Positions 11,068 through 39,608 of a DNA stretch of 41,998 nt are shown here, piece by piece. The notes beneath the pieces were generated by a model, which saw only the letters and a list, made by a program, of their open reading frames with translations, was not told where the DNA came from and searched no databases. A program made the position numbers and the translations under genes. Position 1 is the stretch's first letter; every line of letters begins with the position of its first letter. This DNA comes from Longimicrobium sp. Lineage in GTDB: Bacteria; Gemmatimonadota; Gemmatimonadetes; Longimicrobiales; Longimicrobiaceae. The stretch covers positions 1 to 41,998 of the forward strand of contig NZ_DASURI010000399.1 of the NCBI RefSeq assembly GCF_036280135.1, in the 5' to 3' direction.

Positions 11068-11508
11068 ATGGCCTCGCCCGGCCCCTACCCCGACCGTGCC
11101 GACGATCGCGCCCCGGCGACGCGTTCCCACGCGTGCACGGGCCAATCCTGCGAAGCCCCCGGCTGCCGGAATCCGCTCCGGCCCGCCCAGGTCGCGAAGG
11201 GCGGCCGGTACTGTTCCCCGAAGTGCCGCCGCGCCGGCTGGGAAGCGCAGCACCCGCGGGCTAACCGGCCTCGGCCCGGCGTGGGCGAGGGCCGGGCGGT
11301 CGATCGCGTGCTCGGGATCATGGCCGACGGCAAGTGGCGCACCGTGCCAGAGCTGGCGGTCCTGGCCGGCTGCACCGAGGCCGGCGCCTCGGCCCGCCTG
11401 CGTGACCTGCGCAAGCCCAAGTTCGGCCGGTTCACCGTGGAGCGGCGCCCGATCGCTCCCGTGTGGACGCCGAGGCTGTACGAGTACCGCGTGATTCTCA
11501 GGGGGTGA
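11068..11508 (+). CDS. Zn-finger plus winged-HTH DNA-binding protein
   Basis: CEAPGC..YCSPKC, then MADGKWRTVPELA...ASARLRDLRK...YEYR. Confidence 0.7.
   Translation: MASPGPYPDRADDRAPATRSHACTGQSCEAPGCRNPLRPAQVAKGGRYCSPKCRRAGWEAQHPRANRPRPGVGEGRAVDRVLGIMADGKWRTVPELAVLAGCTEAGASARLRDLRKPKFGRFTVERRPIAPVWTPRLYEYRVILRG
11103..11150 (+). repeat. Dispersed ~45-bp element, copy 1
   Basis: Core ACGCGTTCCCACGCGT at 11119-11134. Confidence 0.85.
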
Positions 11509-11511
11509 TGG

Positions 11512-12348
11512 GTGGCCGGGCACTTCGTCAAGCTCTACGGTTCGATCCTGAATAGCAGCGTCTGGTGTTCCACGCCGGAGGTCAAGCTGGTGTGGATCAC
11601 CATGTTGCTACTCGGGGACGGCGACGGAAACGTCTACGGTGCTGTCCCGGGCATCGCTCGTCAGGCCGGCGTGCCAGTCGAGGCGTGTCGGGAAGCGATC
11701 AAGTACCTGAGCGGCCCCGACCCGGACTCGCGCACGCCCGACCACGAGGGCCGCCGGATCCTGCCGATAGACGGCGGCTGGAAGATCGTCAACTCCAGGA
11801 AATACCGCGAGATGCGAACTGAAAGGCAGCGGCAGTCGGCCGACCGTGCGCAGCGATACCGGGAGAGAAAGGCGGCCGGCCAGACTCGGCGTCCGCGTGA
11901 CGCGTCACGCAAATCACGCGCAGAGGTAGAGGTAGAGACAGACACTACGGATATTCCTCCGGAAGGGGCGGCTACCGCCGCACCCGCCGCGAAGAAACCG
12001 AGAGCGCCGTCAGTCCAGGCGGAAGCCGTGCAGGACTACGAGCAGCGTTTCGGCGCCGGCTCTGCCCCGGGCGGGCGGATCGCGGGCGTCATGACCCGGC
12101 TGGTGGAGCACCAGGCCGCGGCGCGTTCCGAGGAGCCGTACCCCTGCTGGTCGGGCTGGGTGCGGCCGGCGTGGCGGCGCTACCTCGCGGAGACCACGCA
12201 TCCGGCGCCGAACGTGAACGACTTCGCGCAGCATTTCGCGGACTGGGCGGGCGTGACGGCCTTGGCGCGAGCGCCGGCGCGCGGCGGCGGTGGGGCCGAG
12301 GCGCGATCCGATGCGGCCGTGGCGCGGTTCATTCAGCGCGGGAGGTGA
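11512..12348 (+). CDS. Putative replication initiator (replisome organizer)
   Basis: FVKLYGSILNSSVW wHTH-type N-terminus, R-rich helix, EVEVETDT linker, internal palindrome. Confidence 0.7.
   Translation: MAGHFVKLYGSILNSSVWCSTPEVKLVWITMLLLGDGDGNVYGAVPGIARQAGVPVEACREAIKYLSGPDPDSRTPDHEGRRILPIDGGWKIVNSRKYREMRTERQRQSADRAQRYRERKAAGQTRRPRDASRKSRAEVEVETDTTDIPPEGAATAAPAAKKPRAPSVQAEAVQDYEQRFGAGSAPGGRIAGVMTRLVEHQAAARSEEPYPCWSGWVRPAWRRYLAETTHPAPNVNDFAQHFADWAGVTALARAPARGGGGAEARSDAAVARFIQRGR
11895..11946. other. Candidate replication origin inside the initiator gene
   Basis: Perfect 16-bp palindrome GCGTGACGCGTCACGC, an extra TCACGC, then AGAGGT/AGAGAC hexamer repeats. Confidence 0.45.
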
Positions 12349-12352
12349 GAGG

Positions 12353-12700
12353 GTGACATGTCACTTTGTCGAAGGCGCAGTGCTGTGCACTGGCACTGGC
12401 GGATGGCGCGTGAGCCCCGCTTTGGAGTGCGGGTGGTGCCTGGAAAAGCGTCGCTGCATCGAGACGCCCATCTTCAGCGGCTACTGCGGATACGACGTGA
12501 TCTGCGGCACCTGCGGCTCGGAGTGGAACACCGACGATGGACGGTTCCGCAAGATCGACAACGACGAGCGCGACGCCAACATTGCGCGCGTAGCCGCGAT
12601 GCCGGATCCGAAGTGCTGGGAATGCCACGATACCGGCGACACCGGCGAGCCGATGGACGAACCAGGTACTCACCCGTGCAAGTGCGGAGCGGGCCGGTGA
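12353..12700 (+). CDS. Cys-rich hypothetical protein
   Basis: Several CxxC motifs. GGAGGTG RBS. Confidence 0.6.
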   Translation: MTCHFVEGAVLCTGTGGWRVSPALECGWCLEKRRCIETPIFSGYCGYDVICGTCGSEWNTDDGRFRKIDNDERDANIARVAAMPDPKCWECHDTGDTGEPMDEPGTHPCKCGAGR

Positions 12701-13035
12701 TCGTCCAGCTCTCGACGGGCCGCGAGCGTGTCGGCCGCGAGGTGTTCGGGGTGGGCCTCCGGGCCATCGCGGCGGCGTACTGGCGCGAGCTGTCTGACGC
12801 GACGCTGGAGACGTTCTACGCCGTGCTGGGCGGGGCCATGACCGACCTGGAGTGGCACCGGTTGGTCGAGGAGGCGATCGGGCCCGGCTCGAGGGATCGG
12901 ACGTTCCCGCCGACGCCGGGCGAGCTGCTGGCGATTCTGGACGCGCAGCGGCAGGCCGAGCGGCCGGGCGTGGATCTGCTGGAAGAGGCCGAGGCCGACG
13001 AGCTGGCGCTGCGGGTGGCCCGGGAGCGTGCGTGA
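12697..13035 (+). CDS. Possible helicase loader/inhibitor (G39P-like)
   Basis: FPPTPGELL motif, helical, downstream of the initiator. Confidence 0.5.
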   Translation: MIVQLSTGRERVGREVFGVGLRAIAAAYWRELSDATLETFYAVLGGAMTDLEWHRLVEEAIGPGSRDRTFPPTPGELLAILDAQRQAERPGVDLLEEAEADELALRVARERA

Positions 13036-14093: not shown

Positions 14094-14103
14094 AGCGTGA
14101 CGC

Positions 14104-14132: not shown

Positions 14133-14138
14133 GGTCGC

Positions 14139-14363
14139 ATGACACCAAAGACCAAGCGGGGAACGTGCCGGTGCTGCGGCGGGGTCGTGGTGCTGGTGGA
14201 TGGCGCGTGGGTGCGCGACGCGAGAATGGCGCGCGGGATCAAGCTGGCGCACGTGGCTAGCCGCCTGGGCGTTTCGAGCTCTTACGTGTCGCAACTCGAG
14301 GCCGGGCTGCGGCCGTTCTCGCTCAAGCTGTGGACCCGTTACCGCAAGGCGCTGGAGGGGTGA
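14139..14363 (+). CDS. Small XRE-type HTH protein
   Basis: RMARGIKLAHVASRLGVSSSYVSQLEAG. Confidence 0.8.
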   Translation: MTPKTKRGTCRCCGGVVVLVDGAWVRDARMARGIKLAHVASRLGVSSSYVSQLEAGLRPFSLKLWTRYRKALEG

Positions 14364-16978: not shown

Positions 16979-17211
16979 TGCCGACTAACCCCCGGCGCCG
17001 GATCGAGGAGGCGGCGAGGGAGATCGAGCAGCCGTTCGGCTACACGATCGTCTACGGGCATCATCTCAAGATCGTGGCTGTCCTGGAGCGCCTGATCCGG
17101 GAGGCCGCGGAGGTGGTAACGCGCCCGTGCTACGACGACACTGACCCCGACTTGGCGATCCTCTCCCACTTCGGCCTGGGCGAGGAGGAGGGGAGGGAGC
17201 GGAATGGCTGA
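16978..17211 (+). CDS. Accessory hypothetical protein
   Basis: TGATG coupling. Confidence 0.55.
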   Translation: MPTNPRRRIEEAAREIEQPFGYTIVYGHHLKIVAVLERLIREAAEVVTRPCYDDTDPDLAILSHFGLGEEEGRERNG

Positions 17212-17410
17212 GAAGACTAAGCCGGAGCCGTGCCCGTTCTGTGCCGACGATCGCGTATCGGTCGAAGGTGCTGCTGGCCTGTGGTGGGTGTTCTGTGGGA
17301 ACCCGTTCTGCGGCGCTAGCGGGCCTGATCGCCGGACTCGACGGGACGCCATCGAGCGGTGGAATGACGCGCCGAGAGATCGGTCTCTGGTGTCCTCCGA
17401 TGCCCGCTGA
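17204..17410 (+). CDS. Lar-family (restriction alleviation-like) protein
   Basis: PCPFC...VFC...CGASGP...AIERWN. Confidence 0.75.
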   Translation: MAEKTKPEPCPFCADDRVSVEGAAGLWWVFCGNPFCGASGPDRRTRRDAIERWNDAPRDRSLVSSDAR

Positions 17411-24715: not shown

Positions 24716-25150
24716 GTGGAGCGGATCCCGAGCGAGGTGTGGACGGGGCTTGCCGGCTTGCTGGCCGGGGTCGGTGCATACTTCGCCGGCAAAAAGCGGC
24801 GCACACCTCAGCAGACTGTCACTTCCCCCCGCGCGTTTGATCGGTCCTGGGCTCAAGGTATCGAGTCTCAGATGCGCAAGCTCCTCGGCCTCGCTCACGA
24901 GGTGGCGGAGATCGCGCGAAGGATCGATCGAATGGAGCAATGGCAGGACGGCCACGAGGCCGAGGACCGCAAGGCTCACGAGCGGCTGGTGATCGTGGAG
25001 CAGCAGTACAAGGCCGTGCGTGAGTCTCAGGGGCGCTCGGAAGGCATGCTCAAGCGCGTGCTGGACCTGCTGGAGACCGACCTGAAGGAAACGAAGCGGC
25101 GCTTGCTGGACCTGGAGCGGCAACTCCAGGACCGCGGGAGGTTGGCTTGA
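24716..25150 (+). CDS. Single-TM coiled-coil protein (lysis-associated?)
   Basis: N-terminal TM segment followed by heptad repeats. Confidence 0.55.
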   Translation: MERIPSEVWTGLAGLLAGVGAYFAGKKRRTPQQTVTSPRAFDRSWAQGIESQMRKLLGLAHEVAEIARRIDRMEQWQDGHEAEDRKAHERLVIVEQQYKAVRESQGRSEGMLKRVLDLLETDLKETKRRLLDLERQLQDRGRLA

Positions 25151-25955: not shown

Positions 25956-26548
25956 CGGCCCCCAGGATGCCCCGTCTACGCGTGGGAACGCGTGCGCGGG
26001 ACGCGATGTTTCTGTGCCTGGCCGTCGGCCTTGCCCTGACGCTGATCGTGTCCAGGGCGGCCCTGTACGCTCAGACGGTCCCGCTGAGCCAGGGTGGCGC
26101 CGGCGCCGGCCCGGTGGTGGGGAACATCCTCACGGCTCGAGCCTCGGCCACGCTGTCCAAGACGGACAACACCCTCACGGACGTTGCCGGGATGTCCGTG
26201 ACCTTGGAGGCGGCGACCACGTACACGTTCCGGGTGGAGCTGTTCTGCACGGCCACGGACGGGGGCCTGCGCTCGCTGATCAACGGCACGGCGACGGCCT
26301 CGGCCTACGTGGCGGAGGGCGTGACGATCTACGACGGTGCCACGGCCAACTCGCGCACGACCACGTTCGGCAACGGCGTGTCCACGGTGGCGACGGTGGT
26401 GGCGCCGACGGTGCACATCACGATCACCGGAATGATCACCACGACGGACGCGGGCACGTTCAAGGTGCAGTTCAGCCAGGTCAGCACGAACGCGGCGGCG
26501 TCTACGGCCCTGGTCAACTCGTACATGTGGGTCATGGAGACCGAGTGA
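25952..26548 (+). CDS. Protein with signal-peptide-like segment and tail-fibre-tip-like beta domain (alternative start 26006)
   Basis: MFLCLAVGLALTLIVSRAALYA|Q followed by LTDVAGMSVTLEAATTY...AGTFKVQFSQ. Confidence 0.6.
   Translation: MTAPRMPRLRVGTRARDAMFLCLAVGLALTLIVSRAALYAQTVPLSQGGAGAGPVVGNILTARASATLSKTDNTLTDVAGMSVTLEAATTYTFRVELFCTATDGGLRSLINGTATASAYVAEGVTIYDGATANSRTTTFGNGVSTVATVVAPTVHITITGMITTTDAGTFKVQFSQVSTNAAASTALVNSYMWVMETE
25963..26009 (-). repeat. Dispersed ~45-bp element, copy 2 (inverted)
   Basis: ACGCGTGGGAACGCGT at 25978-25993. Confidence 0.85.
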
Positions 26549-26703
26549 TGGCGAACGTGTACTGCCGTTCCTGCGGCGTACCGCTGGAGACCAAGGCCGA
26601 CCAGGGCCTCGGCTGCTGCGCGCGCTGCTACCGGCCGCACGCTGGCCCGGCGTGCCAGGCTGGGCACTGCTCCCACGGCCCCCGGCCGCGCCGGACTGCA
26701 TAA
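26548..26703 (+). CDS. Small Cys-rich protein
   Basis: TGATG coupling, CxxC motifs. Confidence 0.45.
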   Translation: MANVYCRSCGVPLETKADQGLGCCARCYRPHAGPACQAGHCSHGPRPRRTA

Positions 26704-26723
26704 CGGGAGCTGAATTCAATCAA

Positions 26724-27143
26724 ATGGCGCGCGGTGGACGCCGGCCCGGGGCAGGACGCAAGCCGGGCAACAACGGAGCCGAGAAGGAAGAGCTTCGCCG
26801 GCTGCTGCGCGAGCGTGTCGCGGTCCAGTGGGGGCCGATGATCGACGCGCAGATCGAGAACGCGAAGGGCATCAAGTACCTGGTGGTCAGGGAGAAGAAG
26901 ACGGGCAAGTTTGTGCGTGTGACGGAGGCGATGGCCCGGGCCAAGGCCAAGCTGGGCGACGGCGAGGAAGAGATCGAGGTGTGGGAGAAGGACCCGAGCG
27001 TGCAGGCGTTCACGGACCTGGCGAACCGCACGATCGACCGGCCGGCGGAGCAGCCGCTGGACGTGAACGTGACGGGGGAGGTCAACCTGGTGGCGCGGCT
27101 GGTGGCGGGGCGTAAGCGCGTGGCCGAGGCCAAGCATGGCTAG
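26724..27143 (+). CDS. terS: Terminase small subunit (putative)
   Basis: MARGGRRPGAGRKPG N-terminus. Directly upstream of TerL. Confidence 0.75.
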   Translation: MARGGRRPGAGRKPGNNGAEKEELRRLLRERVAVQWGPMIDAQIENAKGIKYLVVREKKTGKFVRVTEAMARAKAKLGDGEEEIEVWEKDPSVQAFTDLANRTIDRPAEQPLDVNVTGEVNLVARLVAGRKRVAEAKHG

Positions 27144-28629
27144 CCCGGCCCGGGTCGAGCTGGAGCTGGCCGACGAGGTCGCCAAGTTCTACGCCGACCC
27201 GCTGGGCTACGTGCTCTTCGCCTATCCGTGGCGGGAGCCGGGCACGCCGCTGGCCGACCACGACGGGCCCGACAAGTGGCAGGCGAAGGCGCTCAAGAGC
27301 CTGGGCGAGCAGGTCAAGGCGCGGCGCTTCGATGGCCTGCACCCGGTGGCTCCGATCCGGGCCGCGTACAGCTCCGGTCACGGGATCGGCAAGACCACGT
27401 TCGTTGCCTGGGTGGTGAACTGGATCATGTCCACGCGCCCGCACGCGCACGGCACGATCACGGCCAACACCTACGTGCAGCTCGAAACCAAGACCTGGGC
27501 GGCCATAAAGCGCTGGACGGGCCTGTGCATCACCTCGCACTGGTTCCAGGTGGGCGACCATCGCATGTACCACGTGGACCATAAGGACTCCTGGTTCTGC
27601 GCGCCTCAGAGCCCGAAAGAGGAGAACAGCGAGGCTTTCGCGGGCCAGCACGCCGCGGACTCGACCAGCTTCTATGTGTTCGATGAGGACAGCGCCATTC
27701 CGGACAAGATCCACGAGGTGGCCGAGGGCGGGCTCACGGACGGCGAGCCCATGATCTTCCTGTTCGGCAACCCGACCAGGAACAGCGGGCACTTTCACCG
27801 GGCGTGTTTCGGTGCGGAGCGGAACCGCTGGAACCCGACCGTGATCGACAGCCGCACGTCCAGGTTCACGAACAAGGCGCAGATCCAAGAGTGGATCGAC
27901 GTGTACGGCGAGGACAGCGACTTCGTGCGCGTGCGCGTCAAGGGCCTGCCGCCCCGGGCCTCGGAGCTTCAGTTCATTGACCAGGGCCGGGTGTTCGAGG
28001 CTCAGAAGCGGCCCACGCCGGCCATGTTCGGAGACGAGCCGCTCGTGTGCGGGGTGGACGTGTCCGACGGCGGCTCGGCCTGGAACGTGATCAGGTTCAG
28101 GCGCGGCGCGGACGCGCGCAGCATCCCTCCGGTGCGGGTCCCGGGCGAGAAGGTGCGCGGTGATCGTTCCGCGTTCCTGGCAGTGCTGGCCGAGGTGCTG
28201 AACGGGGAGTATGGCGGCCAGCGCGTGCAGGCGATGTTCGTGGACAGCGCGTTCGGGGCGCCCTACGTGGAGCGGCTCCAGGCCATGGGCTTCAAGCAGG
28301 TGCAGGAGGTGAGGTTCGGCGCGGAGAGCCCGGACCACCACCAGGCCAACCTGCGCGCGTACATGTGGCACAGCCTGAAGGAATGGCTCTTGCGCGGGGC
28401 GATCGACCCGAAGGACGTGAAGCTGGAGACGGACCTGACCGCGCCGGGCTACCACATCAACAAGCAGGACAAGCTCGTGATCGAGAGCAAGGAAGACATG
28501 GCGAAGCGCGGCGTGGACTCGCCTGACGACGGAGACGCGCTGGCACTGACGTTTGCTGCGCAGGTGGGGCGCGTGTCCCGTCCGAAGCGGCCCGGGCCCG
28601 GCCAGCCGGCGGCTTGGACGTGGGCATGA
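27136..28629 (+). CDS. terL: Terminase large subunit
   Basis: SGHGIGKT Walker A, YVFDE Walker B, FGNPT, GVDVS and SPDDGDALAL nuclease motifs. Confidence 0.95.
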   Translation: MASPARVELELADEVAKFYADPLGYVLFAYPWREPGTPLADHDGPDKWQAKALKSLGEQVKARRFDGLHPVAPIRAAYSSGHGIGKTTFVAWVVNWIMSTRPHAHGTITANTYVQLETKTWAAIKRWTGLCITSHWFQVGDHRMYHVDHKDSWFCAPQSPKEENSEAFAGQHAADSTSFYVFDEDSAIPDKIHEVAEGGLTDGEPMIFLFGNPTRNSGHFHRACFGAERNRWNPTVIDSRTSRFTNKAQIQEWIDVYGEDSDFVRVRVKGLPPRASELQFIDQGRVFEAQKRPTPAMFGDEPLVCGVDVSDGGSAWNVIRFRRGADARSIPPVRVPGEKVRGDRSAFLAVLAEVLNGEYGGQRVQAMFVDSAFGAPYVERLQAMGFKQVQEVRFGAESPDHHQANLRAYMWHSLKEWLLRGAIDPKDVKLETDLTAPGYHINKQDKLVIESKEDMAKRGVDSPDDGDALALTFAAQVGRVSRPKRPGPGQPAAWTWA

Positions 28630-28832
28630 TCGCGGTCCGGCGCGGCGACGCTTTCTTGCTGCCCATCGCGGGCCTGTTCGGCTTCGGCGTGGTCCTGGTC
28701 GTGGACGAGCGGGACGGCTGCGCCCAGGTAGCGATGCAGAGCCAGTCTGTGGGCCTGCTGTCCCTGGAGACTGTGGAGGCCGGAGCGGCGCTGCTGCGCG
28801 AGCGGGCCGAGGAGATCAGCACCGATGCCTGA
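28626..28832 (+). CDS. Hypothetical protein
   Basis: ATGA-coupled, between terL and portal. Confidence 0.5.
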   Translation: MIAVRRGDAFLLPIAGLFGFGVVLVVDERDGCAQVAMQSQSVGLLSLETVEAGAALLRERAEEISTDA

Positions 28833-31029
28833 GACGAACGCAGCCGGCTACAGCTCCGGCGCCAAGAAGGGCCAGACCCACGCGCAGATCCTCGAGGCCG
28901 CGCGCAAGCGGTTCAAGCTCGCGGTGGGCGCGGAGAAGAAGCAGCGCGACCGGGAGAAGGAAGACCTCCAGTTCCAGGTGCCCGAGCTTCAGTGGGACGA
29001 GGCCGCGCGGGCCGAGCGCATGGGCAAGCCAGGCATCCCGGCCCGGCCCACGCTGAGCATCTCCAAGATCGACCAGCCGATCGCGCAGGTGGAGAACGCG
29101 ATGCGGCAGGCGCACCTCGGGGTCGAGGTGCACCCGCTCAGCCCGGACAGCGACGACGACACGGCCGAGGTGATCCGGGGCTTGTACCGCAAGATCGAGC
29201 AGGACAGCCGGGCCAGCTTGGCTCGTTCCTGGGCCTTCGCGCGCGCGATCCGGGCCGGGCGCGGCTACTACCGCGTGAACACGAAGTATGACGAGGCCGG
29301 CGGCAACCCGTTCGATCAGGTCATCACGATCGAGCGCATCCTGCACCAGGAAAGCGTGTACGTGGACCCGACGGCGGTTGAGCCGGACTACTGCGACGCC
29401 AAGTTCGCGTTCGTCGCGGTGTGGCTCACGCCGGAGCAGTTCGAGGCCGAGTACCCCAAGGCCAAGAATCCGGCCTCGGACGATCAGTCCTGGGACCAGG
29501 CCGGCGAGGACCAGCCGGAGTGGGTCCGGACCGAGGGCGGGCAGCGCGCCATCCGGGTCGTGGAGTACTGGACCCGGAACGTCGAGAAGATCAAGCTCTG
29601 CCTGTACGAGAACGGGGAAGTGGTCGAGAAGGGCCCGGGCGAGGAGCCGGACACGAAGGGCAAGGGCGCGCTCGTTGCGGAGCGCGAGTCCGAGCGTACC
29701 AGCGTGAAGGTGTGCAAGCTTACCGGCTTCGAGGTGCTGGACGAGGCCGACTGGAACGGGCGTTACATCCCGCTCGTGCCTGTGATCGGGCGGGAGTTGC
29801 AGCCGATCGAGGGTGAGCGGCGGTGGGAGGGGATCATCCGCAAGGCCAGGGACGCTCAGAAGCTGTTTAACTTCGCGGCGAGCAACGCCGTGGAGCGGGC
29901 GGCGCTGGAGCCCAAGGCCCCGTTCGTGCTCGACCCGAAGCAGATCGATGGTTATGAGCACCTGTGGGACCAGGCCAACACGCGGAGCTTCCCTTACCTG
30001 CCTGTGAACATGTTCGTCGGCGCGCAGCAGTACCCGCCGCCGCAGCGCACGCAGGTGGACAACCAGGCCATGAGCCCCAGCCTGATGTTGCTCCAGAACG
30101 CTACCGACTGGCTCCAGAGCACGACGGCGACGTATGACCCGAGCCTGGGTCGGCAGAATCCGCGCGAGCGCAGCGGCCGGGCCATCGTGGCGTTGCAGGA
30201 TCAGGCCACGCTCACGTCGAGCGACTTCCTGCAGAACCTGGCGGAGATCAGCCTGACGTGCGAGGCCAAGATCGTGCTGGACCTGCTGCCGACGATCTAC
30301 GACCGGCCGGGCCGGATCGCGCAGACGCTGGACCTTGAGGGCGAGACCGAGACGGTGATGCTCAACGCCTCGTTCACGGCCGACCAGAACGGGCGGCCGC
30401 GGGCGGCGGGCGAGGGCATGCCCGGGGCCAAGACCTACGATCTGCGCAAGGGCGTGTACTCCGTGGCGGTGTCGATCGGCCGGAGCCGGCAGACGTTGCA
30501 GCAGGAGGCCGTGGACGAGATCGGCGGCATCTTGCAGGCCATGCCCGCGCTGCTGCCGATCATCGGCCCGACGTGGTTCCGGTATCGAGACTTCCCGGGC
30601 TCGAAGGAAATCGCGGACATGCTGGGTAAGATGCGGGACCAGCAGTACCCGTTCCTGAAGGACGGCGCGGCGCCCGACGACCCGGCGGCGCTGAAGGCTC
30701 AGCTCCAGCAGCAGGGCCAGCAAATGCAGGCCATGGGCGCGCAGCTCCAGGAGGCGATGAACAAGCTCCAGACGGACCAGGTGAAGGCCGAGGCCGACAT
30801 CCGCAAGGCGGAGATCGACTCGCAGACCCGGCTGGAGACGGAGCGGCTCAAGGCCGAGGCTCAGATCGAGGTGGAGCGGATCAGGGCTGCGCAGAAGGAC
30901 CTGACGCAGACGAAGCAGATGGTGGCCGACCAGCGCGAGGCTGCGATGGACCGTAGCCACGAGGCGGCGCAGGCCACGCGGGCAGAGACGGCCGCAATCA
31001 TGCGGGACGGGCAGGGGGACAGGGCGTGA
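28825..31029 (+). CDS. Portal protein, P22-like
   Basis: 734 aa. QWD...RPTLSISKI, YIPLVPVIG, ARDAQKLFN, SGRAI, Gln-rich barrel helix. Confidence 0.92.
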   Translation: MPETNAAGYSSGAKKGQTHAQILEAARKRFKLAVGAEKKQRDREKEDLQFQVPELQWDEAARAERMGKPGIPARPTLSISKIDQPIAQVENAMRQAHLGVEVHPLSPDSDDDTAEVIRGLYRKIEQDSRASLARSWAFARAIRAGRGYYRVNTKYDEAGGNPFDQVITIERILHQESVYVDPTAVEPDYCDAKFAFVAVWLTPEQFEAEYPKAKNPASDDQSWDQAGEDQPEWVRTEGGQRAIRVVEYWTRNVEKIKLCLYENGEVVEKGPGEEPDTKGKGALVAERESERTSVKVCKLTGFEVLDEADWNGRYIPLVPVIGRELQPIEGERRWEGIIRKARDAQKLFNFAASNAVERAALEPKAPFVLDPKQIDGYEHLWDQANTRSFPYLPVNMFVGAQQYPPPQRTQVDNQAMSPSLMLLQNATDWLQSTTATYDPSLGRQNPRERSGRAIVALQDQATLTSSDFLQNLAEISLTCEAKIVLDLLPTIYDRPGRIAQTLDLEGETETVMLNASFTADQNGRPRAAGEGMPGAKTYDLRKGVYSVAVSIGRSRQTLQQEAVDEIGGILQAMPALLPIIGPTWFRYRDFPGSKEIADMLGKMRDQQYPFLKDGAAPDDPAALKAQLQQQGQQMQAMGAQLQEAMNKLQTDQVKAEADIRKAEIDSQTRLETERLKAEAQIEVERIRAAQKDLTQTKQMVADQREAAMDRSHEAAQATRAETAAIMRDGQGDRA

Positions 31030-31274
31030 ACGGCAAGCAGGCGAGGGTGGCGAGGAAGGCGGCGCACGAGACAGCGCTGGGCATGGCGGCTCAGCTCCGG
31101 GACCCGATCGGGGCCGCGCTGAGCAACGAGCAGGTGACGCGCGGGCGGGTGGACTCGCTGGAGCGGCGGGCGGATGCCATGGTGCGCGACCACGACGCGT
31201 TGCAGGTGCTGGTGGCCGATCACGTGAACCTGGGGCTGCTGGGCAGGCTGCGCTGGCTTTTGCGCGGCCGGTAG
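31026..31274 (+). CDS. Hypothetical protein
   Basis: GTGA coupling. Confidence 0.6.
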   Translation: MNGKQARVARKAAHETALGMAAQLRDPIGAALSNEQVTRGRVDSLERRADAMVRDHDALQVLVADHVNLGLLGRLRWLLRGR

Positions 31275-31294
31275 CTTGCTCGGCACGAAAGGCG

Positions 31295-31323
31295 TTGACT
31301 TCCGGGTGCTGAAAACTGTAAGT
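31295..31323 (+). promoter_or_regulatory. Possible promoter for scaffold and coat genes
   Basis: TTGACT in an AT-richer intergenic gap. The -10 is weak. Confidence 0.3.
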
Positions 31324-31335
31324 GGAAAGTAGGGC

Positions 31336-32484
31336 ATGAGCAGCACGGTACAGGTTGACGGCTACGACGTGACGAGCACGCACGAGACCGCGGATGCGAT
31401 GGTCGAGGCGCTGACTCCGGAGAAGCCGGAGGGGTCGGGCCCGCGCGTGCTGCGGGACCAGGGCAAGGCTGTACCGCAGCAGGACCCGGACGAGGCCAAG
31501 GTCAGCGAGGCCGCGTCGGAGCTGGGCAAGCGCGGGGGCCAGGCCGCGGCCGAGGCGCGGAAGAAGGCGGCCAAGGCCAAGCCCGCCGCGGAGCCGGAGC
31601 AGCCCGAGGCCGAGGCCAAGCCCGAGGAGAACGAGCAGGAGGCCGAGCGTGAGCAGGCCGAGCCCCGCAAGGGCAACCCGCGGCACGACCCGACGGCGCG
31701 CGTCGCGCAGGCCACGCGAGAGGCGGCCGAGGCCCGGCGAGAAGCCGCAGAGCTGAAGCGGCGCCTGGCCGAGCTGGAGGCGCGCGTCAGCCGTCCGGCC
31801 GACCCGACGCCGGCTCAGCCCGCGCAGCCGCAGCGCCAGGCCGCGCCCGCTCCCGACGAGGACCAGGAGCCCAAGGAAGACGACTTCGAGAACTACGCCG
31901 ACTATGTGAAGGCCGCCGGCGCACACGCGGCCCGGCGCGAGTTCCGACAGCTCCAGGAGCGGCAGCAGCGCGAGGCCCGGGCCGCCGAGTTCCAGGCGTC
32001 CGTGCGCGGCTACGTGACCAAGTTCAGTGAGCGGCTCGCGGCGGCCGGCCAGGGCGAGACCCCCGAGGAGCGCCACGCCGAGTTCATGTCCCGGCTGTCT
32101 CCCGAGGTGCAGAACCTTCGCCCGTCCCTGTCGCTGGAGCACCCGAGCATGGCCGGGCCGCTCAATGTCCTGGCCGACCAGATCGTGGCCTCGGAGCACT
32201 CCGCGGGCCTGCTGGTGTTCCTGTCCGAGAATCCCGACGCACTTCAGCGGTTCGCCACGCTGCGATCCCCGCACGACGTTGTGCGTGAGGTGGCGAAGAT
32301 CGAGTACCGGCTCGAAGCTGCAACCGCAGGCGCCAGCGCGAAGCCGGCAGTATCCCAGGCGAAGCCCCCGTTCCGGCCTGTGAACGGCACGCCTAGTACC
32401 GCAGACGCCGCGCCAGGTGACGACGCCTCGTTTGACGAGCACGTCGCTTACCACAACGCAAGGGAGCGGCGCGCGAAGCGGTAG
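31336..32484 (+). CDS. Capsid scaffolding protein (putative)
   Basis: Acidic and coiled-coil, EPKEDDFENYADYVKA motif, between portal and coat. Confidence 0.8.
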   Translation: MSSTVQVDGYDVTSTHETADAMVEALTPEKPEGSGPRVLRDQGKAVPQQDPDEAKVSEAASELGKRGGQAAAEARKKAAKAKPAAEPEQPEAEAKPEENEQEAEREQAEPRKGNPRHDPTARVAQATREAAEARREAAELKRRLAELEARVSRPADPTPAQPAQPQRQAAPAPDEDQEPKEDDFENYADYVKAAGAHAARREFRQLQERQQREARAAEFQASVRGYVTKFSERLAAAGQGETPEERHAEFMSRLSPEVQNLRPSLSLEHPSMAGPLNVLADQIVASEHSAGLLVFLSENPDALQRFATLRSPHDVVREVAKIEYRLEAATAGASAKPAVSQAKPPFRPVNGTPSTADAAPGDDASFDEHVAYHNARERRAKR

Positions 32485-32520
32485 GGACGCGGGCGGCCTC
32501 GCCCGCGCTGGTATCGCCTT

Positions 32521-33753
32521 ATGGCGAATACGCTGGTCACCCCTTCCTGGACCCTCAAGGAGGTCGGGCGGGGTTTCGAGAACAACCTTCGGTTCGTGAA
32601 CAACATCGAGCGCAAGTACAGCGACGAGTTCGTGCAGGCCGGGGCCAAGGTCGGCAACACGATCAACTACCGGCTGCCCCAGCGCTTCACCGTCTCGGAC
32701 GGGCAGGCGCTCGACATCCAGAACCTGCTCGACCAGACCGTGCCCATCAGCTTGACCAACCAGAAGCACGTGGACATGAGCTGGAGCGCCTGGCAGGAGA
32801 CGACCGAGGTCGAGGACGTGCGGCGCCGGTACATCGACAAGGCCGCATCGGCCCTCGCGTCGGTGATCGACAACCTCGCGTTCGAGACGGTCTACAAGGA
32901 CGTGTACAACAGCGTCGGCACGCCCGGCACCACGCCGAGCACCAACCTGACCTACTTGCAGGCCGGGCGGAAGCTGGACGACCTGGCGACGCCGACGGAC
33001 AAGCGCGTCGCGGTGCTCGACTCCGAGCAGATGATCGTCCTCGTCAACGCCAACCTCTCGAGCTTCAACCCGTCCGCGGTGATCTCCGAGGGCTTCCGCA
33101 AGGGGATGTTCGGCCGGAACGTGCTGAACATCGATGAGTGGTACTCCTCGCAGAGCCGGGCCACGTTCACGACCGGGAGCAGCACCACGAGCACCCCGCT
33201 CGTGGACGGCGCGGGCCAGACCGGCAGCACGATCAACATCAACGGCTGGGGCTCCGGCGCCACGTCGCTGAAGAAGGGCGACATCATCACCATCGCGGGC
33301 GTGTTCAGCGTCAACCCGGAGAACTACCAGAGCACGGGCCGGCTCCAGCAGTTCGTGATCACTGCGGACACCTCGGATTCGAGTGGTGCCACGGCCACGC
33401 TGCCGATCAGCCCGTCGATCATCACGTCCGGCTCGCTCCAGACCGTGAGCGCCTCGCCGGCGAACGATGCCGTCGTGACCTACTGGTCCATGGCGGCCGG
33501 CGGCTCGCAGTCCGCGACCGCGTCGCCCACGGGCCTGATCTTCCACCCCGAGGCGTTCGCGGGTGTCACCGCCGACCTGGCTCTGCCCAACGGCGGCGCC
33601 AAGGCCACGCGGATCAGCTCGAAGCTGCGCGGGATCGCCCTGCGCATGGCCGAGCAGTGGGACGTCCAGACCGACCAGAACATCACCAGGATCGACACCA
33701 TCGTCGGCTTCGCGACCACGCGCGCGTCGTTTGCGTGCCGGGCCCAGGGGTAA
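32521..33753 (+). CDS. Major capsid protein, P22 gp5-like
   Basis: MANTLVTPSW...GAKVGNTINYRLPQRF...KGDIITIAGVFSVNP...TRID. Confidence 0.92.
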   Translation: MANTLVTPSWTLKEVGRGFENNLRFVNNIERKYSDEFVQAGAKVGNTINYRLPQRFTVSDGQALDIQNLLDQTVPISLTNQKHVDMSWSAWQETTEVEDVRRRYIDKAASALASVIDNLAFETVYKDVYNSVGTPGTTPSTNLTYLQAGRKLDDLATPTDKRVAVLDSEQMIVLVNANLSSFNPSAVISEGFRKGMFGRNVLNIDEWYSSQSRATFTTGSSTTSTPLVDGAGQTGSTININGWGSGATSLKKGDIITIAGVFSVNPENYQSTGRLQQFVITADTSDSSGATATLPISPSIITSGSLQTVSASPANDAVVTYWSMAAGGSQSATASPTGLIFHPEAFAGVTADLALPNGGAKATRISSKLRGIALRMAEQWDVQTDQNITRIDTIVGFATTRASFACRAQG

Positions 33754-33757
33754 CGCC

Positions 33758-34399
33758 ATGGCACTGACTCGGACGACCCTGTCGAGCGCGGTGGTGGTGG
33801 CGGATACCTCCATCGTGGTTGCTTCCGCGACCGGCTTCGCGGCCGACCGCATCGTGCGGATCGACCAGGAGTTCATGGTCGTGCAGAAGAGCTATTCCAG
33901 CGGCACCACCATCCCGGTGCGTCGCGGGCAGCTCGGGACGAAGAACGTGGCTCACGTGGCCTCGGCCGGCGTCGTGGTCGGGACCGCTGCGGACGATTGG
34001 GACGCGCCCGGCGTCGCGGCGGTGGTGAACAACCCGACCGCGGGACGGCCGCGGATCATCGAGTCGATCACGGCCGACAACTCCACGGTGACGCATTCGG
34101 CCGCCGGCACCGACCACGTCGTGATCCTCAACGGGACCAGCGTGATCAATCTGACCGTGCCCGTTCCGACCACGGACATGGACGGGGACGAGCTGAACAT
34201 CTTGGCGAACGGGACCGCGGCTCACGTGATCACGTTCACGGGCGGCATCGGTGGCGAGGGCTCCTCGTACGACGTGATCACGAGCAACGCCAACGGTCCG
34301 GTGGCGTACAAGTTCGTGGCCTGCAACGCCGTGTGGCTCGCGTACTGCCAGCCTGCCATGACCGGCACTGTGACCAACCTCGTCGGCGGAATCGCGTAA
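33758..34399 (+). CDS. Virion structural protein (decoration-like)
   Basis: Follows the coat gene. Thr/Val-rich beta protein. Confidence 0.65.
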   Translation: MALTRTTLSSAVVVADTSIVVASATGFAADRIVRIDQEFMVVQKSYSSGTTIPVRRGQLGTKNVAHVASAGVVVGTAADDWDAPGVAAVVNNPTAGRPRIIESITADNSTVTHSAAGTDHVVILNGTSVINLTVPVPTTDMDGDELNILANGTAAHVITFTGGIGGEGSSYDVITSNANGPVAYKFVACNAVWLAYCQPAMTGTVTNLVGGIA

Positions 34400-34411
34400 G
34401 GGGGACAGATC

Positions 34412-35128
34412 ATGGCTGTTCAGAGGAACGTCCCGACCCCGACCGCCGATTCGACCACCGAGACTCTGCCCAGCCGTACCGGGCCCGGCCTGGAGTCCTA
34501 CGTGCTCCCGATCGGGGCCGGCTACACCTGGAGCGGTGACGAGGGCAGCTTCTTCCACGCCTGCAACGCGACGGTGGGGACCGGGATCGCCGGTCACGCC
34601 GCGCCGGTCGTGGCCGACACCGACACCAAGGCGCTGTTGCACGTCTACAACGGCGGCACCAAGACGATCATCCCGGTCTATCTCAACCTGGAGTTCACGG
34701 CCATCGGTGCCGGCGGCACGCTGTCGTACAACGTGGTCTACATCGACGACAAAAACGCGACCGCTCGCAGTTCGGGCGGGACCGCGATCACGCCGGTGTG
34801 CACCAACTCCGAGGGCTCGAACACCACGGGCGCCACGATCCACTTCGGGGCGGTTGTCACCGCCATGACCTCGAGCCGCAAGGTGTTCTCCCAGGCGTGC
34901 CGCGAGGTGATCCCGGTCGTGGAGGACCAGATCACGGTTTTCTTCGGCTCGCCCAACGGCGGGATGTTGTCCGGCCTGACCACGGCCGGCACCGCCACGG
35001 CGAACATCGTGCAGTATGCGCCGCCGATCGCGATCCGCCCGGGCGGCAACTTCAACTTCGCGCGCATCCGCGCCTCGCAGTCGGGCGCGGACTCGTACAG
35101 CTTCTCGTTCGGGTACATCGAGCGCTAG
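34412..35128 (+). CDS. Virion structural protein
   Basis: Beta-rich, in the head operon. Confidence 0.6.
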   Translation: MAVQRNVPTPTADSTTETLPSRTGPGLESYVLPIGAGYTWSGDEGSFFHACNATVGTGIAGHAAPVVADTDTKALLHVYNGGTKTIIPVYLNLEFTAIGAGGTLSYNVVYIDDKNATARSSGGTAITPVCTNSEGSNTTGATIHFGAVVTAMTSSRKVFSQACREVIPVVEDQITVFFGSPNGGMLSGLTTAGTATANIVQYAPPIAIRPGGNFNFARIRASQSGADSYSFSFGYIER

Positions 35129-35132
35129 CCCG

Positions 35133-35582
35133 ATGCCCGCTACCGTGACGCTCAGCACGACGGAGCTTGTCGAGGCCGTCGGACCGTCTGACGGTGCGGT
35201 GAAGCTGGCGTCCACTTCGGGGCTGTTCGCCGGCTATCGGCTGTTCCTGGAGGGGGAGTCGATGGAGGTGATCAGCCTCGGAGTGGATTCGTGGGTGAAC
35301 GTGCGCCGGGGCGTGGACGGCACGAAGGGAGTGCCCCACGCCTCGGGCGGCACGATCTACATCGGCCAGCCGCATCAGTTCTACAGCCAGGACCCGACCG
35401 GCCGGCCGCCGGCCGTGATCCCGGTCTCGCCGTACATCAACGTCGTGAATGGGTCCCTGTGGTTCGCTCAGGGGGATGCGTTGCCCACGGCCACGCGGTG
35501 GTGGCAGCGTCAGACCACGACGCACGGGGTCGGCGCCCTGGGCGTGCGCACCACGACCCTCGATCCCACGTCGAGCACGTAA
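35133..35582 (+). CDS. Virion structural protein, paralogous to the N-domain of 33758..34399
   Basis: Shared TT.L..AV...AS.TG...E.M.V...VRRG..GT..V.H pattern. Confidence 0.6.
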   Translation: MPATVTLSTTELVEAVGPSDGAVKLASTSGLFAGYRLFLEGESMEVISLGVDSWVNVRRGVDGTKGVPHASGGTIYIGQPHQFYSQDPTGRPPAVIPVSPYINVVNGSLWFAQGDALPTATRWWQRQTTTHGVGALGVRTTTLDPTSST

Positions 35583-35591
35583 AGGAGTCTC

Positions 35592-36041
35592 ATGGCAGCG
35601 TTCAAGTCCAATTACGAGAAGGAAGTCGAGCGGTGGAACACGCCGCGGAGCCAGGGCGGGATGCGCCCGGACACGTTCCAGGCGTTCCCGGTCATGGTGT
35701 ACCGCGCGCGGCGGCCGGAGCGTGGCGGGCCCTATCTGGTGATCGACCCTCGCGAGGAGGCGTGGAGCATGGGCAACTGCGCCACGGCCAGGAACGAGGA
35801 GGAGCTGGACCGGTATCTCCGCCAGGGGTGGCAGCGCACGCCGGGTGAGGCGATCGAGCACGCCAACCGCGAGGACGAGCGGATTGCGAACGAGGCCGCG
35901 GCTCGGGCGCACTCGGACCGGCGCCTGAGCGAGAAGGCCAAGGGCGAGGCCGCCGAGGCCGACGCCGAGACCGCGGATCACCTGCCGGAGATCCCCGAGA
36001 AGCCCGTGGTGCGTCGAGGGCGGAAGCCCGCCGCGGCGTAA
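35592..36041 (+). CDS. Hypothetical head-region protein
   Basis: AAGGAG RBS. Ends in RRGRKP. Confidence 0.7.
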   Translation: MAAFKSNYEKEVERWNTPRSQGGMRPDTFQAFPVMVYRARRPERGGPYLVIDPREEAWSMGNCATARNEEELDRYLRQGWQRTPGEAIEHANREDERIANEAAARAHSDRRLSEKAKGEAAEADAETADHLPEIPEKPVVRRGRKPAAA

Positions 36042-36047
36042 GGCGCG

Positions 36048-36767
36048 ATGGCGACCCTCTCCGAGCTGGCGGAAGGCGCGCTCCGGCGGCTGGGAGTTCT
36101 GGCCGCCGGGGAGGTCATGTCCGCGGAGGACAGCGCGATTGCGCTCGCCGCGGTCAACAGCCTTCTGGACCAGTGGGCGGGGGAGAGGCTGGTCATCTAC
36201 TCGCCGTCGGTGCGCACCACCTGGACGATCAGCGCGAACTACGGCGAGTACAGCGTCGGCTCCGGCTCGGACATCAACGTCGCGCGCCCGGTGTACATCA
36301 ACGACGTGCGCCTGATCCAGACCACGCCCAATCCCGACCTCGAGACTTCGCTGGTGCGGCTCACCGATCAGGGTTACGCGGACATCGCGGAGAAGGCGGC
36401 CACGGCCACGCTGCCCACGTCCTGGTACTACAACCCCACGTACCCGACCGGGACGCTCAAGCTCTGGCCGGTGCCGACGTCGAGCGCGTTGCAGGGGGCG
36501 CTGTACGCGCCGGGTGCCGTGGCGGAGTTCTCGGCCATGTCCGAGTCGGTGAGCCTGCCGCCGGGCTACCGGCGCATGATCGAGACCAACCTGGCTGTGG
36601 AGCTGGGGCCGATGTTCACCCGGCAGATCCCGGGTGAACTGGCGATGGCCGCGCGCGAGTCGAAGGACACCGTGAAGCGGGCGAACTATCGCATGTCGGA
36701 TCTGTCCTTCGAGGCCGGCGCGCTCGTGGGCGGGGCTCGCTACTTCGACATCAGGACGGGCGAATGA
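36048..36767 (+). CDS. Head-tail adaptor (P22 gp4-like)
   Basis: ALRRLGVLAAGE...NSLLDQW...LPPGY...NLAVEL. Confidence 0.75.
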   Translation: MATLSELAEGALRRLGVLAAGEVMSAEDSAIALAAVNSLLDQWAGERLVIYSPSVRTTWTISANYGEYSVGSGSDINVARPVYINDVRLIQTTPNPDLETSLVRLTDQGYADIAEKAATATLPTSWYYNPTYPTGTLKLWPVPTSSALQGALYAPGAVAEFSAMSESVSLPPGYRRMIETNLAVELGPMFTRQIPGELAMAARESKDTVKRANYRMSDLSFEAGALVGGARYFDIRTGE

Positions 36768-38218
36768 GGCTCCCCGGCTTCGTGGGCCCGTCCTACGTGG
36801 ACCGCAGCTTGACCGCGGACCAAGAGGACACGATCAACCTGTACGTAGAGAAGCTCCAGAGCGAGGGCGCCACGCACAAGTTCGCGCTGCTGCCGTTCGG
36901 CGGCGTAGAGTCCCTGGCGACGCTGGACACGTCCGGGGCGGGCCGGGCGCACTGGTTCGAGGACTCGGAGCAGCGCGAGTTCGCGGTGATCGGGTCTTCC
37001 CTGGTGGAGATCGACCGATTCGGCGCGCTCACGTCGCGCGGCACGGTCGCGGTGGACGCCAACCCGGCCACGATCTGCTCGAACGGGGCCGTCGGTGGGC
37101 AGTTGTTCATCACGAGCGGCGGGAACGGCTACTGCTACGACCTGGGCACGAACACGTTGACGCAGGTCACGGCCTTGGACGGCAAGGCCACTCAGGGCGA
37201 GTTCCTGGACGACTGGTTTTTCGCGCTCGACGCGAACACGGGCACGCTCTACCGATCGGACCTGCTCGACGGCCTGACCTGGACCACGGGAACCAACTTC
37301 GTGCAGCGCTCTCTGGCGCCGGACCCGTGGATCGCCATGAAGAGGCTGAACCGGCTCATGTACCTGTTCGGGGCCGTGACGAGCGAGGTCTGGTACGACG
37401 CTGGGACTACGCCGTTCCCGTTGGCGCCGCACCCGTCCGGCCTGATGTCGCTCGGCGTCGCGGCCCCGTTCAGCGTGGCGCGGTCGAACGATGAGCTGCT
37501 GTGGGTGGGGGCCTCGGACCTGGGCGCGGGGTCGGTGCAGCGCGCGAGCGGATTCCAGCCGCAGCCGGTGGCGACGTACCCGATCGAGATGGCGATTGGG
37601 GGCTACGCCACGATCAGCGACGCGGTCGCGGACACGTACACGGACCAGGGGCACCGGTTCGTCCAGTTCACGTTCCCGAGTGCGGGCGTGACGTGGGTCT
37701 ACAACGCCACCTCGGACACGTGGACGAAGCGCGGAACGTGGATCAGCGAGGACGGCGCCTTTACGCACTGGCGCCCGCGGTGGCACGTGTACGCCTATGG
37801 CGAGCACCGCTGGCTCGACGGGGAGACTCCGGTCGTGTACCGGGCGACGCCCGACCTGACGCTCGACGTGGACAGCCGGCCGATCCGGTACGTGCGGCGC
37901 GCGCCGGCCCTGACGAACGAGAACGAGCGCGTGTTCTATAGCTCCGTCGAGGCCGAGCTGGAGCGTGGCGTCGGCACGACCACGGGCCAGGGCGAGAATC
38001 CGCAGGTGATGCTGCGGATTTCGAACGACGGCGGGAAGACGTGGGGGCCCGAGATGTGGCGCTCGGCGGGCAAGATCGGTGAGTACGGTAAGCGCGTGCG
38101 GTGGAACCGGATGGGCGCCGCGCGGCGGCGCGTGTACGAGCTGGTCCTGACGGACCCGGTCGGGCTCAAGCTGATGGACCTGTACGTCGAGATGGCGCAG
38201 CAACCGAGGGCGGCATGA
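36764..38218 (+). CDS. Tail hub / DNA stabilization protein (P22 gp10-like)
   Basis: VMLRISNDGGKTWG...GKIGEYGKRVRWNRMG..R.RVYE. Confidence 0.85.
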   Translation: MRLPGFVGPSYVDRSLTADQEDTINLYVEKLQSEGATHKFALLPFGGVESLATLDTSGAGRAHWFEDSEQREFAVIGSSLVEIDRFGALTSRGTVAVDANPATICSNGAVGGQLFITSGGNGYCYDLGTNTLTQVTALDGKATQGEFLDDWFFALDANTGTLYRSDLLDGLTWTTGTNFVQRSLAPDPWIAMKRLNRLMYLFGAVTSEVWYDAGTTPFPLAPHPSGLMSLGVAAPFSVARSNDELLWVGASDLGAGSVQRASGFQPQPVATYPIEMAIGGYATISDAVADTYTDQGHRFVQFTFPSAGVTWVYNATSDTWTKRGTWISEDGAFTHWRPRWHVYAYGEHRWLDGETPVVYRATPDLTLDVDSRPIRYVRRAPALTNENERVFYSSVEAELERGVGTTTGQGENPQVMLRISNDGGKTWGPEMWRSAGKIGEYGKRVRWNRMGAARRRVYELVLTDPVGLKLMDLYVEMAQQPRAA

Positions 38219-38685
38219 ATCAAGCCGGTCTTCCGAAGGACAGAATCGCCGACAGCGGCGGGGCGCTGACGCAGCCGTGGAACCTGTACCTGTCCGACCA
38301 GGCCGAGCAGTTGCTCGCGGCGCCGTCGCTCGTGAAGCTGTACCAGAACACGGGCTTGACGTCCTCGCTCGCGGCGGAGGACCTGGCGAGCGGGGGTGTC
38401 TCGCAGGGCGTGTACATGATCGCCTACGAGGCCCGGATCACAACGGCGGCCGGGGTGTCCAGCTCGCTCCAGCTCTCGTTCTCGTGGACGCGGAACGGAC
38501 AGACTATCACTCAGGCCACTACGGCGTATACGGGGAACAGCACGGGCACGCTCGCCGCGACTGGTTCGCTGATGCCGTTCGTGGACGATTCGACGCCGGT
38601 GACGGTCGCGACGACGTTGAGCACGTCCGGGTCTCCGGCGGCGGTGTACGAGATGGCGGTCGCTCTGATCCGGGTGAGCGCATGA
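38215..38685 (+). CDS. Tail-associated protein
   Basis: ATGA coupling after the gp10-like gene. LTQPWNLYL N-terminus. Confidence 0.6.
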   Translation: MNQAGLPKDRIADSGGALTQPWNLYLSDQAEQLLAAPSLVKLYQNTGLTSSLAAEDLASGGVSQGVYMIAYEARITTAAGVSSSLQLSFSWTRNGQTITQATTAYTGNSTGTLAATGSLMPFVDDSTPVTVATTLSTSGSPAAVYEMAVALIRVSA

Positions 38686-39053
38686 CGACGCGATTGCTGC
38701 CGGCGACGGAATGGGCCCGCCTGGACGGGTGCGGCCTCCAGATCGCTCCGCTCGTGCCGCCGGGCGACGCCGAGGTGGTCGTGGTCGAGGACGGCGGCCG
38801 GATCGTGGGGTGCTTCACCGTGGTCCGGGTGACCTATCTCGAGTCCGTGTGGATCGCGCCCGAGCTGCGCGGCAACGCGGGGATCGTGCGGTCGCTGTAC
38901 CAGCGCGCGTTCAAGCTCGCGGCGAAGTGGGGCCGCTGGGCGCTGGGCGGGGCCGAGGACAGCAATCCGGCCATGGGCGACTACCTGGAGCGGCTGGGCG
39001 CGAAGCCGATCCCGGCGAAGTTCTACGCGGTTCCGTTGGAGGGAGGGCACTAA
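38682..39053 (+). CDS. GNAT-fold protein in the tail module
   Basis: VVVEDGGRIVG...VWIAPELRGNAG...YLERLG. Confidence 0.7.
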   Translation: MTTRLLPATEWARLDGCGLQIAPLVPPGDAEVVVVEDGGRIVGCFTVVRVTYLESVWIAPELRGNAGIVRSLYQRAFKLAAKWGRWALGGAEDSNPAMGDYLERLGAKPIPAKFYAVPLEGGH

Positions 39054-39529
39054 TGCCGGCAGCGGCAGTCATTCCGGCGGTGGCCGGGCTTGCGGGCCAG
39101 GCCATCGGCCTGCACGGGCAGAACAAGGCCGCGAAGCACGCCGCGCGCAGCGAGGCACAGGCGCTCGCGGTCGCGGAGCGGCAGGAGGCCGAGCGGAAGG
39201 CCGAGCGCGCGCAGCGCATGGAGATGTTCCAGCAGGCCATGGCCGACTACCGGAACCGCTCCGGGGCGCTCCAGGGCATGACCCTGGGCATGCTTGGCGG
39301 GGCCGGGTTTGGCATGGGCGGCCGCTTCTCCACCCCGGCCGACGTGGGCCGCGCTCCGGTGCCGATGCCGCCGATGGACGCGCCCGCGCCGGGTGGGATG
39401 CCTGGCGGGATGCCGGGCGGGATGGGCGGGGCTGGCGTGCCGGAGGTGCCGTCGGCTGGCATGGGCGGGCCCGGGATGATGGCCGGCGACACGCTCGCCA
39501 CGCTGGGACGCCGCAGGGGCCGCTACTAG
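39053..39529 (+). CDS. Putative ejection protein (gp7-like N-terminus)
   Basis: Hydrophobic Ala/Gly start, KAAK.AA..Q, Met/Gly/Pro-rich tail. Confidence 0.6.
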   Translation: MPAAAVIPAVAGLAGQAIGLHGQNKAAKHAARSEAQALAVAERQEAERKAERAQRMEMFQQAMADYRNRSGALQGMTLGMLGGAGFGMGGRFSTPADVGRAPVPMPPMDAPAPGGMPGGMPGGMGGAGVPEVPSAGMGGPGMMAGDTLATLGRRRGRY

Positions 39530-39561
39530 GAGCCGGGCAAGGTGAGGGTCCAGGCGATCCG

Positions 39562-39608
39562 CGATCGGGCCTGCGCCACGCGTTCCCACGCGTGCGTGGG
39601 GCCGTCTG
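39562..39608 (+). repeat. Dispersed ~45-bp element, copy 3 (intergenic)
   Basis: Core ACGCGTTCCCACGCGT at 39578-39593. Confidence 0.85.

Follow-up and report, generated by a model that had tools for sequence, protein, structure and literature searches.

We analyzed contig NZ_DASURI010000399.1 of RefSeq assembly GCF_036280135.1, labeled Longimicrobium sp.; the window is the whole contig (C399) of 41,998 nucleotides (nt), which was assigned to a 7.27-Mb bin (G000). This DNA is the circular genome of an uncultured, P22-like temperate soil phage, and it carries a short dyad element in three dispersed copies, each built on the same 16-bp core, ACGCGT-TCCC-ACGCGT. Pfam scans of 62 + 24 open reading frames (ORFs) and a PHROGs scan of 62 ORFs identified a tyrosine integrase, DnaB, an endolysin, terminase, a P22-like portal, scaffold, coat, and head closure proteins, and a DNA ejection protein. 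Nearly all of the phage genes are co-oriented, and a CI-like repressor is encoded on the minus strand. The end of the contig joins its start over a 4-nt overlap that keeps a single reading frame open, giving a circle of 41,994 bp with core-to-core gaps of 14,859, 13,600, and 13,535 bp; these results confirmed the circular genome and the three spacings proposed in an earlier note on this DNA.

A three-copy dyad element in a circular phage genome

The core 16-mer is present without a mismatch at the three places and on the strands given by the earlier note (Table 1), and the flanks quoted there match the sequence. It is the sole 16-mer with three copies in the window, and no three-copy 16-mer arose in 100 order-2 or in 100 order-5 Markov simulations. 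The flanks also align, as had been claimed. Of the 2 × 16 flanking columns, 11 of 32 agree across all three copies (p = 1.6 × 10−4), with 53 of 96 pairwise matches (55%; p = 2.5 × 10−5) versus 48 of 48 in the core, and copies 1 and 2 form a 46-bp alignment with seven mismatches and one gap. A 48-bp profile of the element found no fourth copy in the window, where the next-best score was 7.0 compared with 54.8 to 59.0 for the true copies. An independent assembly is available as Logan contigs of one sequencing run, possibly the run from which this assembly was made and probably of the same sample. These contigs span copy 1 (9961-11459) as well as copies 2 and 3 and show zero differences; one of them equals 25545-41998 without any difference and adds 22 more letters. 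The copies are therefore not a product of misassembly, and the element is real and nonrandom.

In the core, a fixed TCCC separates two self-palindromic ACGCGT half-sites with a spacing of 10 bp; a perfect half-site dyad therefore surrounds a polar center. Because both hexamers are self-palindromic, the core is a direct and an inverted repeat at once. The ACGCGT arms are invariant and the central 8 bp are identical in all three copies. ACGCGT occurs at 10 sites in the genome (14.9 expected), six of them inside the elements. Many 6-bp palindromes are avoided by this genome. The avoidance is window-wide, with observed/expected counts of 0/21.7 for AGGCCT, 0/19.9 for CAGCTG, 0/15.8 for TGGCCA, and 0/15.3 for GTCGAC, and with one copy each of GGTACC, CGTACG, CTGCAG, and AGATCT versus 8 to 11 expected; the window also has a gene for a Lar-like restriction alleviation protein (17204-17410). 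One further ACGCGT belongs to a perfect 12-bp palindrome within an iteron-like stretch at 11894-11921, inside the likely initiator gene, which also holds two copies of TCACGC.

Two copies are on the plus strand and one is on the minus strand; one lies in a gene and two lie between genes. The contexts are unrelated, as the earlier note had stated, but its placement of copy 2 at the 5′ end of a gene needs correction: the core is in the intergenic gap (25956-26005), and only the end of a flank overlaps the start codon at 26006. At copy 3, the corresponding two genes overlap in a relative (L018). Third codon positions are invariant across the copies. Within its gene, copy 1 coincides with four rare codons and with the windows of lowest codon adaptation, a weak sign since low values are common at 5′ ends. 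For copies 1 and 2, the predicted folds of both strands, whether DNA or RNA, were no better than those of shuffled sequences (z, −1.3 to +0.7), and copy 3 alone folds above its shuffles (z, −3.2 for DNA and −2.4 for RNA, plus strand). There is no compensatory stem change, because the stem never varies. Folding thus lends no support to the conserved core hairpin that had been suggested. The claim of an orientation-independent cis site acting at the DNA level stood, since the element is found in both directions in a nearly one-way genome, in unrelated contexts, with invariant third codon positions, and with two of three copies folding no better than their shuffles.

A shared peptide (HAWERV frame) was rejected because the copies have no common start and their third positions never vary. 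Promoters of the ECF type have a spacer of 16 to 17 bp; an ECF-type promoter reading of the element (GGAAC, 14 bp, CGAT) was rejected, as the spacer is too short, two copies are antisense, and one overlaps a start codon. Kinship of the element with a structured region at 9710-10125 was also rejected, with alignment scores of 17 to 19 that are lower than those of many other windows. That region, a gap of about 410 nt before a DUF5131 gene, has a predicted RNA fold with several long stems (z = −5.5; 0 of 100 shuffles) and a perfect 20-bp inverted repeat (9968-9987/10095-10114). It had no Rfam match at gathering score and no homologue among the related loci compared, and it is possibly a new phage RNA or mobile element.

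Table 1. Positions of the element copies and of the genes and sites discussed with them
Feature	Coordinates	Strand	Remarks
Copy 1 (about 48 bp)	11103..11150	+	Core 11119-11134; within codons 12-28 of gene 11068-11508
Copy 2	25962..26009	-	Core 25978-25993; 50-bp gap flanked by genes 25377-25955 and 26006-26548; about 0.7 kb ahead of packaging genes
Copy 3	39562..39609	+	Core 39578-39593; 96-bp gap between genes 39053-39529 and 39626-41011
Likely attP core	3962..4006	-	Resembles 3′ half of tRNA-Lys(CTT); read from sequence; no Rfam match for the half
CI-like HTH_3 repressor	5852..6232	-	Divergent control gap 6233-6284 without element
146-aa gene holding copy 1	11068..11508	+	Cys-rich segment and conserved C-terminal domain common in phages; putative HTH fold, Pfam support weak
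Likely replication initiator	11512..12348	+	Suggested by position and internal iteron-like stretch 11894-11921; no Pfam or PHROG match
Gene abutting copy 2	26006..26548	+	Abuts by ribosome-binding region and start codon; no family match
Terminase large subunit	27136..28629	+	First of packaging/head block
Portal (packaging/head block)	28825..31029		
Scaffold (packaging/head block)	31336..32484		
Coat (packaging/head block)	32521..33753		
DNA ejection protein	39626..41011	+	phrog_598; immediately after copy 3

Other repeated or structured stretches of the window include a family (D10) of three similar 38-nt stretches at 14333, 14647, and 15059, each ending in a ribosome-binding site and start codon. 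Long G-U-rich RNA hairpins are predicted within coding regions at 27136-27215, 21360-21430, 35205-35290, and 36065-36115; they are strongest over the terminase gene start, with rough z values of −5 to −7 (15 shuffles).

Occurrence of the element elsewhere and the host question

The element was private to this phage among everything searched. In the viral_contigs collection, the 16-mer occurs at 13 places and is always single, and its 14-mer occurs in at least 120 contigs with one match each (27 of 64 parts scanned). A spacer-free pattern gave eight matches there, with unrelated spacers and flanks. From metagenomes (13 of 64 parts), 120 of about 590 matches were listed, and 21 of the 110 distinct ones fall in one reverse transcriptase gene, which we take to be of the group II intron type. 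Across the outside matches (n = 370), the best flank score was 3.7, compared with 9.0 to 17.9 for left-out true copies. A search of GTDB contigs for the exact core plus GGG returned 13 single matches in 13 different records and no multicopy record; within the phylum of the bin, 1 of 400 other genomes has one exact copy. INPHARED and PLSDB had no match covering >80% of the query. The core word was not reported in the literature searched at the level of listings and abstract starts.

Much closer relatives of the phage are known as proteins, with 77 to 88% coat identity, one of them (87%) on a 43,650-nt contig. Among 93 partial related loci, other dispersed three-copy 16-mers were present in 3, besides one tandem gene repeat, and therefore repeats this strong are not rare in phages.

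Some outside matches are of interest in their own right. In a bacterial genome (L151, 1501-1576; G038:C38), the region separating two divergent genes contains one exact core and, 60 bp from it, a sister with two mismatches, and the two have flanks in common; these flanks misfit the phage profile, and the pair may be an unrelated regulator site. Low-GC metagenome contigs (L026, L027, L038, L067, and L071) carry a different palindromic element that overlaps the 16-mer and is followed by a common CTACACCCCTG motif; this element looks like a REP-type family.

We also asked whether the element belongs to the bin genome. Outside the phage contig, the bin has no copy at ≤1 mismatch, its 12 two-mismatch matches fall within the range of five control words (4 to 22), and the element is in none of 36 same-genus genomes. 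We therefore rejected a repeat of the bin genome. The likely attP, which sits just before the tyrosine integrase gene (3987-5408), matches neither of the two tRNA-Lys(CTT) genes of the bin, and its sequence was found in 0 of 300 genomes of the bin's phylum. A related coat gene was found in 0 of 300 genomes of the bin's class. Because of the attP/tRNA mismatch, the absence from the bin of the phage's palindrome avoidance, and an 82% coat homologue labeled Vicinamibacterales, the phage is probably misbinned and G000 is probably not its host. The tRNA-Lys(CTT) half in the likely attP is a handle for tracing the true host.

Predicted docking sites and candidate binding proteins

The reading that we prefer, at a probability of about 45%, is that the three copies are double-stranded docking sites for one two-fold symmetric, probably phage-made protein that would serve as a roadblock or operator where gene blocks are entered. 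A fixed dyad that occurs in both orientations without conservation of structure is best fitted by a duplex-binding dimer. The copies lie ahead of the replication genes (copy 1), the packaging/head genes (copy 2), and the ejection genes (copy 3), with copies 1 and 2 at block boundaries by the gene map; these positions in a nearly one-way genome suggest a roadblock or operator. Selection would hold the core, because it is 100% identical while the flanks are 55% identical. A dimer would read both half-sites on one face of the helix, and the bound protein would check read-through transcription along the nearly one-directional genome. Block sizes would then account for part of the even spacing of the copies, and chance may account for another part.

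Several points weigh against docking sites of this kind. The docking protein is still hypothetical, and its binding is predicted from sequence. Among distant relatives, the element was found neither in four near-whole ones (49 to 70% coat or terminase identity) nor in 93 + 77 partial related loci (170 in total); the four near-whole relatives likewise had no repeated dyad of their own. The CI control gap (6233-6284) has no core word, and therefore the element is not an ordinary immunity operator. Temperate-phage operators such as the conserved inverted repeats of Streptomyces phage phiC31 and the lambda-type CI/Cro operators lie in some cases far from the repressor gene; the element differs from them in this empty gap, in its three copies only, and in its invariant spacer. 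Simple operators do not usually have an invariant asymmetric spacer. A search of 25000-41998 yielded no sigma-70-type promoter, a weak negative since 0.8 would be expected by chance, and copy 3 is within the tail/ejection block rather than at its start. In addition, PMC4351075 doubts a role in transcription initiation for the dispersed repeats of Cluster O mycobacteriophages.

The earlier note had named as a candidate binder the Zn-finger/winged-HTH protein whose gene (11068-11508) holds copy 1. The C-terminal domain of this protein is widespread in phages, and we compared the loci of the best 80 of 195 relatives with homologous C-terminal domains. The core word was at background level in these 80 loci, and in 93 loci there were 2 two-mismatch and 10 three-mismatch matches versus 20 for the control. 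The closest homologue has a different N terminus and lacks the peptide encoded by copy 1, and ESM Atlas matches were all <0.9. This protein is therefore not supported as the binder; only position ties it to the element. The likely initiator, whose iteron-like TCACGC has only CACGC in common with the core, is a weak candidate. Other candidate binders are the HTH protein encoded at 14139-14363, the small terminase subunit, and host proteins. In all, the candidate DNA-binding genes of the phage are those at 5852-6232, 6285-6602, 9359-9709, 11068-11508, 11512-12348, 14139-14363, and 26652-27143, together with the ejection genes.

Spacing, alternative explanations, and relation to known repeats

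The main alternative to a docking site and roadblock is a loading site whose spacing matters: the copies would be loading or nucleation points for a spreading or looping protein in silencing, protection, or compaction, with no base more than about 7.4 kb from a site. We consider this unlikely. Relative to three random points, the evenness of the gaps has single-test P values between 0.001 and 0.004 (0.0023 by coefficient of variation [CV], 0.0038 by largest gap, and 0.0011 by smallest gap), and other triples of the window agree with the uniform null, with 6, 4, 0, and 0 equally even triples of 9- to 12-mers observed versus 4.3, 2.1, 0.6, and 0.1 expected. The likely attP would fix the point at which the prophage opens, by our reading of its sequence. 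Opened there, the prophage has its sites at 0.170, 0.524, and 0.848, near the ideal sixths of 0.167, 0.5, and 0.833 (joint p = 2.4 × 10−4, post hoc). However, the attP position by itself gives a p of 0.053, and several other landmarks could have served. A codon-type repeat family in the window, D5, is almost equally even (CV, 0.048 versus 0.044 for the element), and no genome-wide 14-kb periodicity was seen. No ParB-like or similar family was found among the scanned ORFs, and the core word is unlike the parS consensus, both of which set the element apart from ParB/parS. The spacing rests on three points in a single genome, chosen from a very large scan. The evenness is suggestive of a functional trisection, but chance is plausible given three points and a post hoc choice.

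A specific form of this idea, which we regard as rather unlikely, is a three-point system that covers the genome. A phage protein would load at 1/6, 1/2, and 5/6 of the prophage, points that are equidistant on the circle, and spread or loop from there. Every base would then be ≤7.4 kb from the nearest site, and a virion genome, however circularly permuted, would deliver a site ≤15 kb from its entry. If true, this would be the simplest case of evenly spaced phage palindromes, and three mutations would be enough to test what such palindromes are for.

It is improbable that the element is a small palindromic repeat, of mobile or host origin, that was inserted three times and has no phage function. 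Such elements are exemplified by REP/RAYT elements, which are short imperfect palindromes, extragenic, and found in both orientations, and the phage element resembles them as an imperfect palindrome that is extragenic in two of three copies and occurs both ways. The roughly 46 bp shared across unrelated contexts would fit insertion, as would the position of copy 3 in a gap where the genes of L018 overlap, and repeats of the true host could still hold the family. Against insertion, an invariant core next to flanks at 55% is unlike even decay, a target duplication common to the copies was not found, and the GTDB and phylum searches described above gave single copies and no multicopy host. The scanned ORFs included no Y1 transposase, and the element has no robust long stem.

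It is quite improbable that the element acts as an RNA, either as a hairpin with a 6-bp stem and UCCC or GGGA in the loop or through transcripts of copies 1 and 3 that would pair in antisense with the transcript of copy 2 where gene 26006 starts. Over 40 nt that span the start of that gene, the sense RNAs of copies 1 and 2 show 83% complementarity, and copy 3 folds well as noted above. However, the other two copies fold at shuffle level, only one of the seven mismatches between them would make a G-U pair, the loops differ between strands, and the window had zero Rfam matches at gathering score, which separates the element from known structured RNAs.

Sites for inversion or resolution by site-specific recombination are very unlikely. 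Imperfect 13-bp arms with an 8-bp asymmetric spacer would have the layout of lox/dif-type tyrosine recombinase sites, in which inverted arms flank an asymmetric spacer, and the asymmetric center is identical in all copies, with loose CCC/GGG arms. Yet each 13-bp arm is invariant only in its inner 4 bp, the outer positions vary, and the sole recombinase found has its own likely tRNA attP rather than being dedicated to the element. Recombination would flip or delete 13 to 15 kb of co-oriented essential genes. The earlier note had raised inversions or deletions between copies; no rearrangement joint at the copies was among the matches listed for the Logan contigs, which drop rare forms. A chance repeat was already disfavored and is barely credible: the 16-mer is single and at background level in large collections, but none of 200 simulations matched its three copies, and the flanks are independently significant.

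The earlier note knew of no described equivalent, but dispersed dyad repeats do exist in Cluster O mycobacteriophages such as Corndog. As described in PMC4351075, these are 17-bp repeats in 34 copies, in and between genes with no clear orientation, that are predicted to bind dimeric proteins and whose function is unknown. Like them, the element is a short, dispersed inverted repeat whose arms do not vary, that is not clearly oriented with respect to transcription, and that is predicted to bind a dimer. In contrast to the 34 copies and variable 3-bp spacer of the Cluster O repeats, it has three copies, a fixed 4-bp spacer, and another sequence; it is evenly placed, while the Cluster O repeats are denser at one genome end, and it resides in a phage with an integrase, while the Cluster O phages have none (PMC4351075). 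The element further differs in that its half-sites are themselves palindromes and its shared sequence extends over about 46 bp. Stoperators of Cluster A mycobacteriophages, treated in the discussion of the same paper, are likewise dispersed sites in temperate phages, proposed to halt transcription when protein bound, but they are asymmetric and oriented with transcription (PMC4351075). The core of the element is a dyad, one of three copies is reversed, and it has no apparent link to the repressor. By analogy, the element would work like the Cluster O dyad repeats, and it falls outside their membership on copy number, sequence, and spacer.

These comparisons place the element as a low-copy form of dispersed phage dyad repeats, a kind seen before yet unexplained. 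Its value as a test case is limited in that the phage is uncultured and the element is known from one genome. Dispersed phage dyad repeats have no known function according to PMC4351075, and three copies, a fixed spacer, and few candidate DNA-binding genes would make this phage an unusually small test case for which proteins bind such repeats and for whether their spacing is important.

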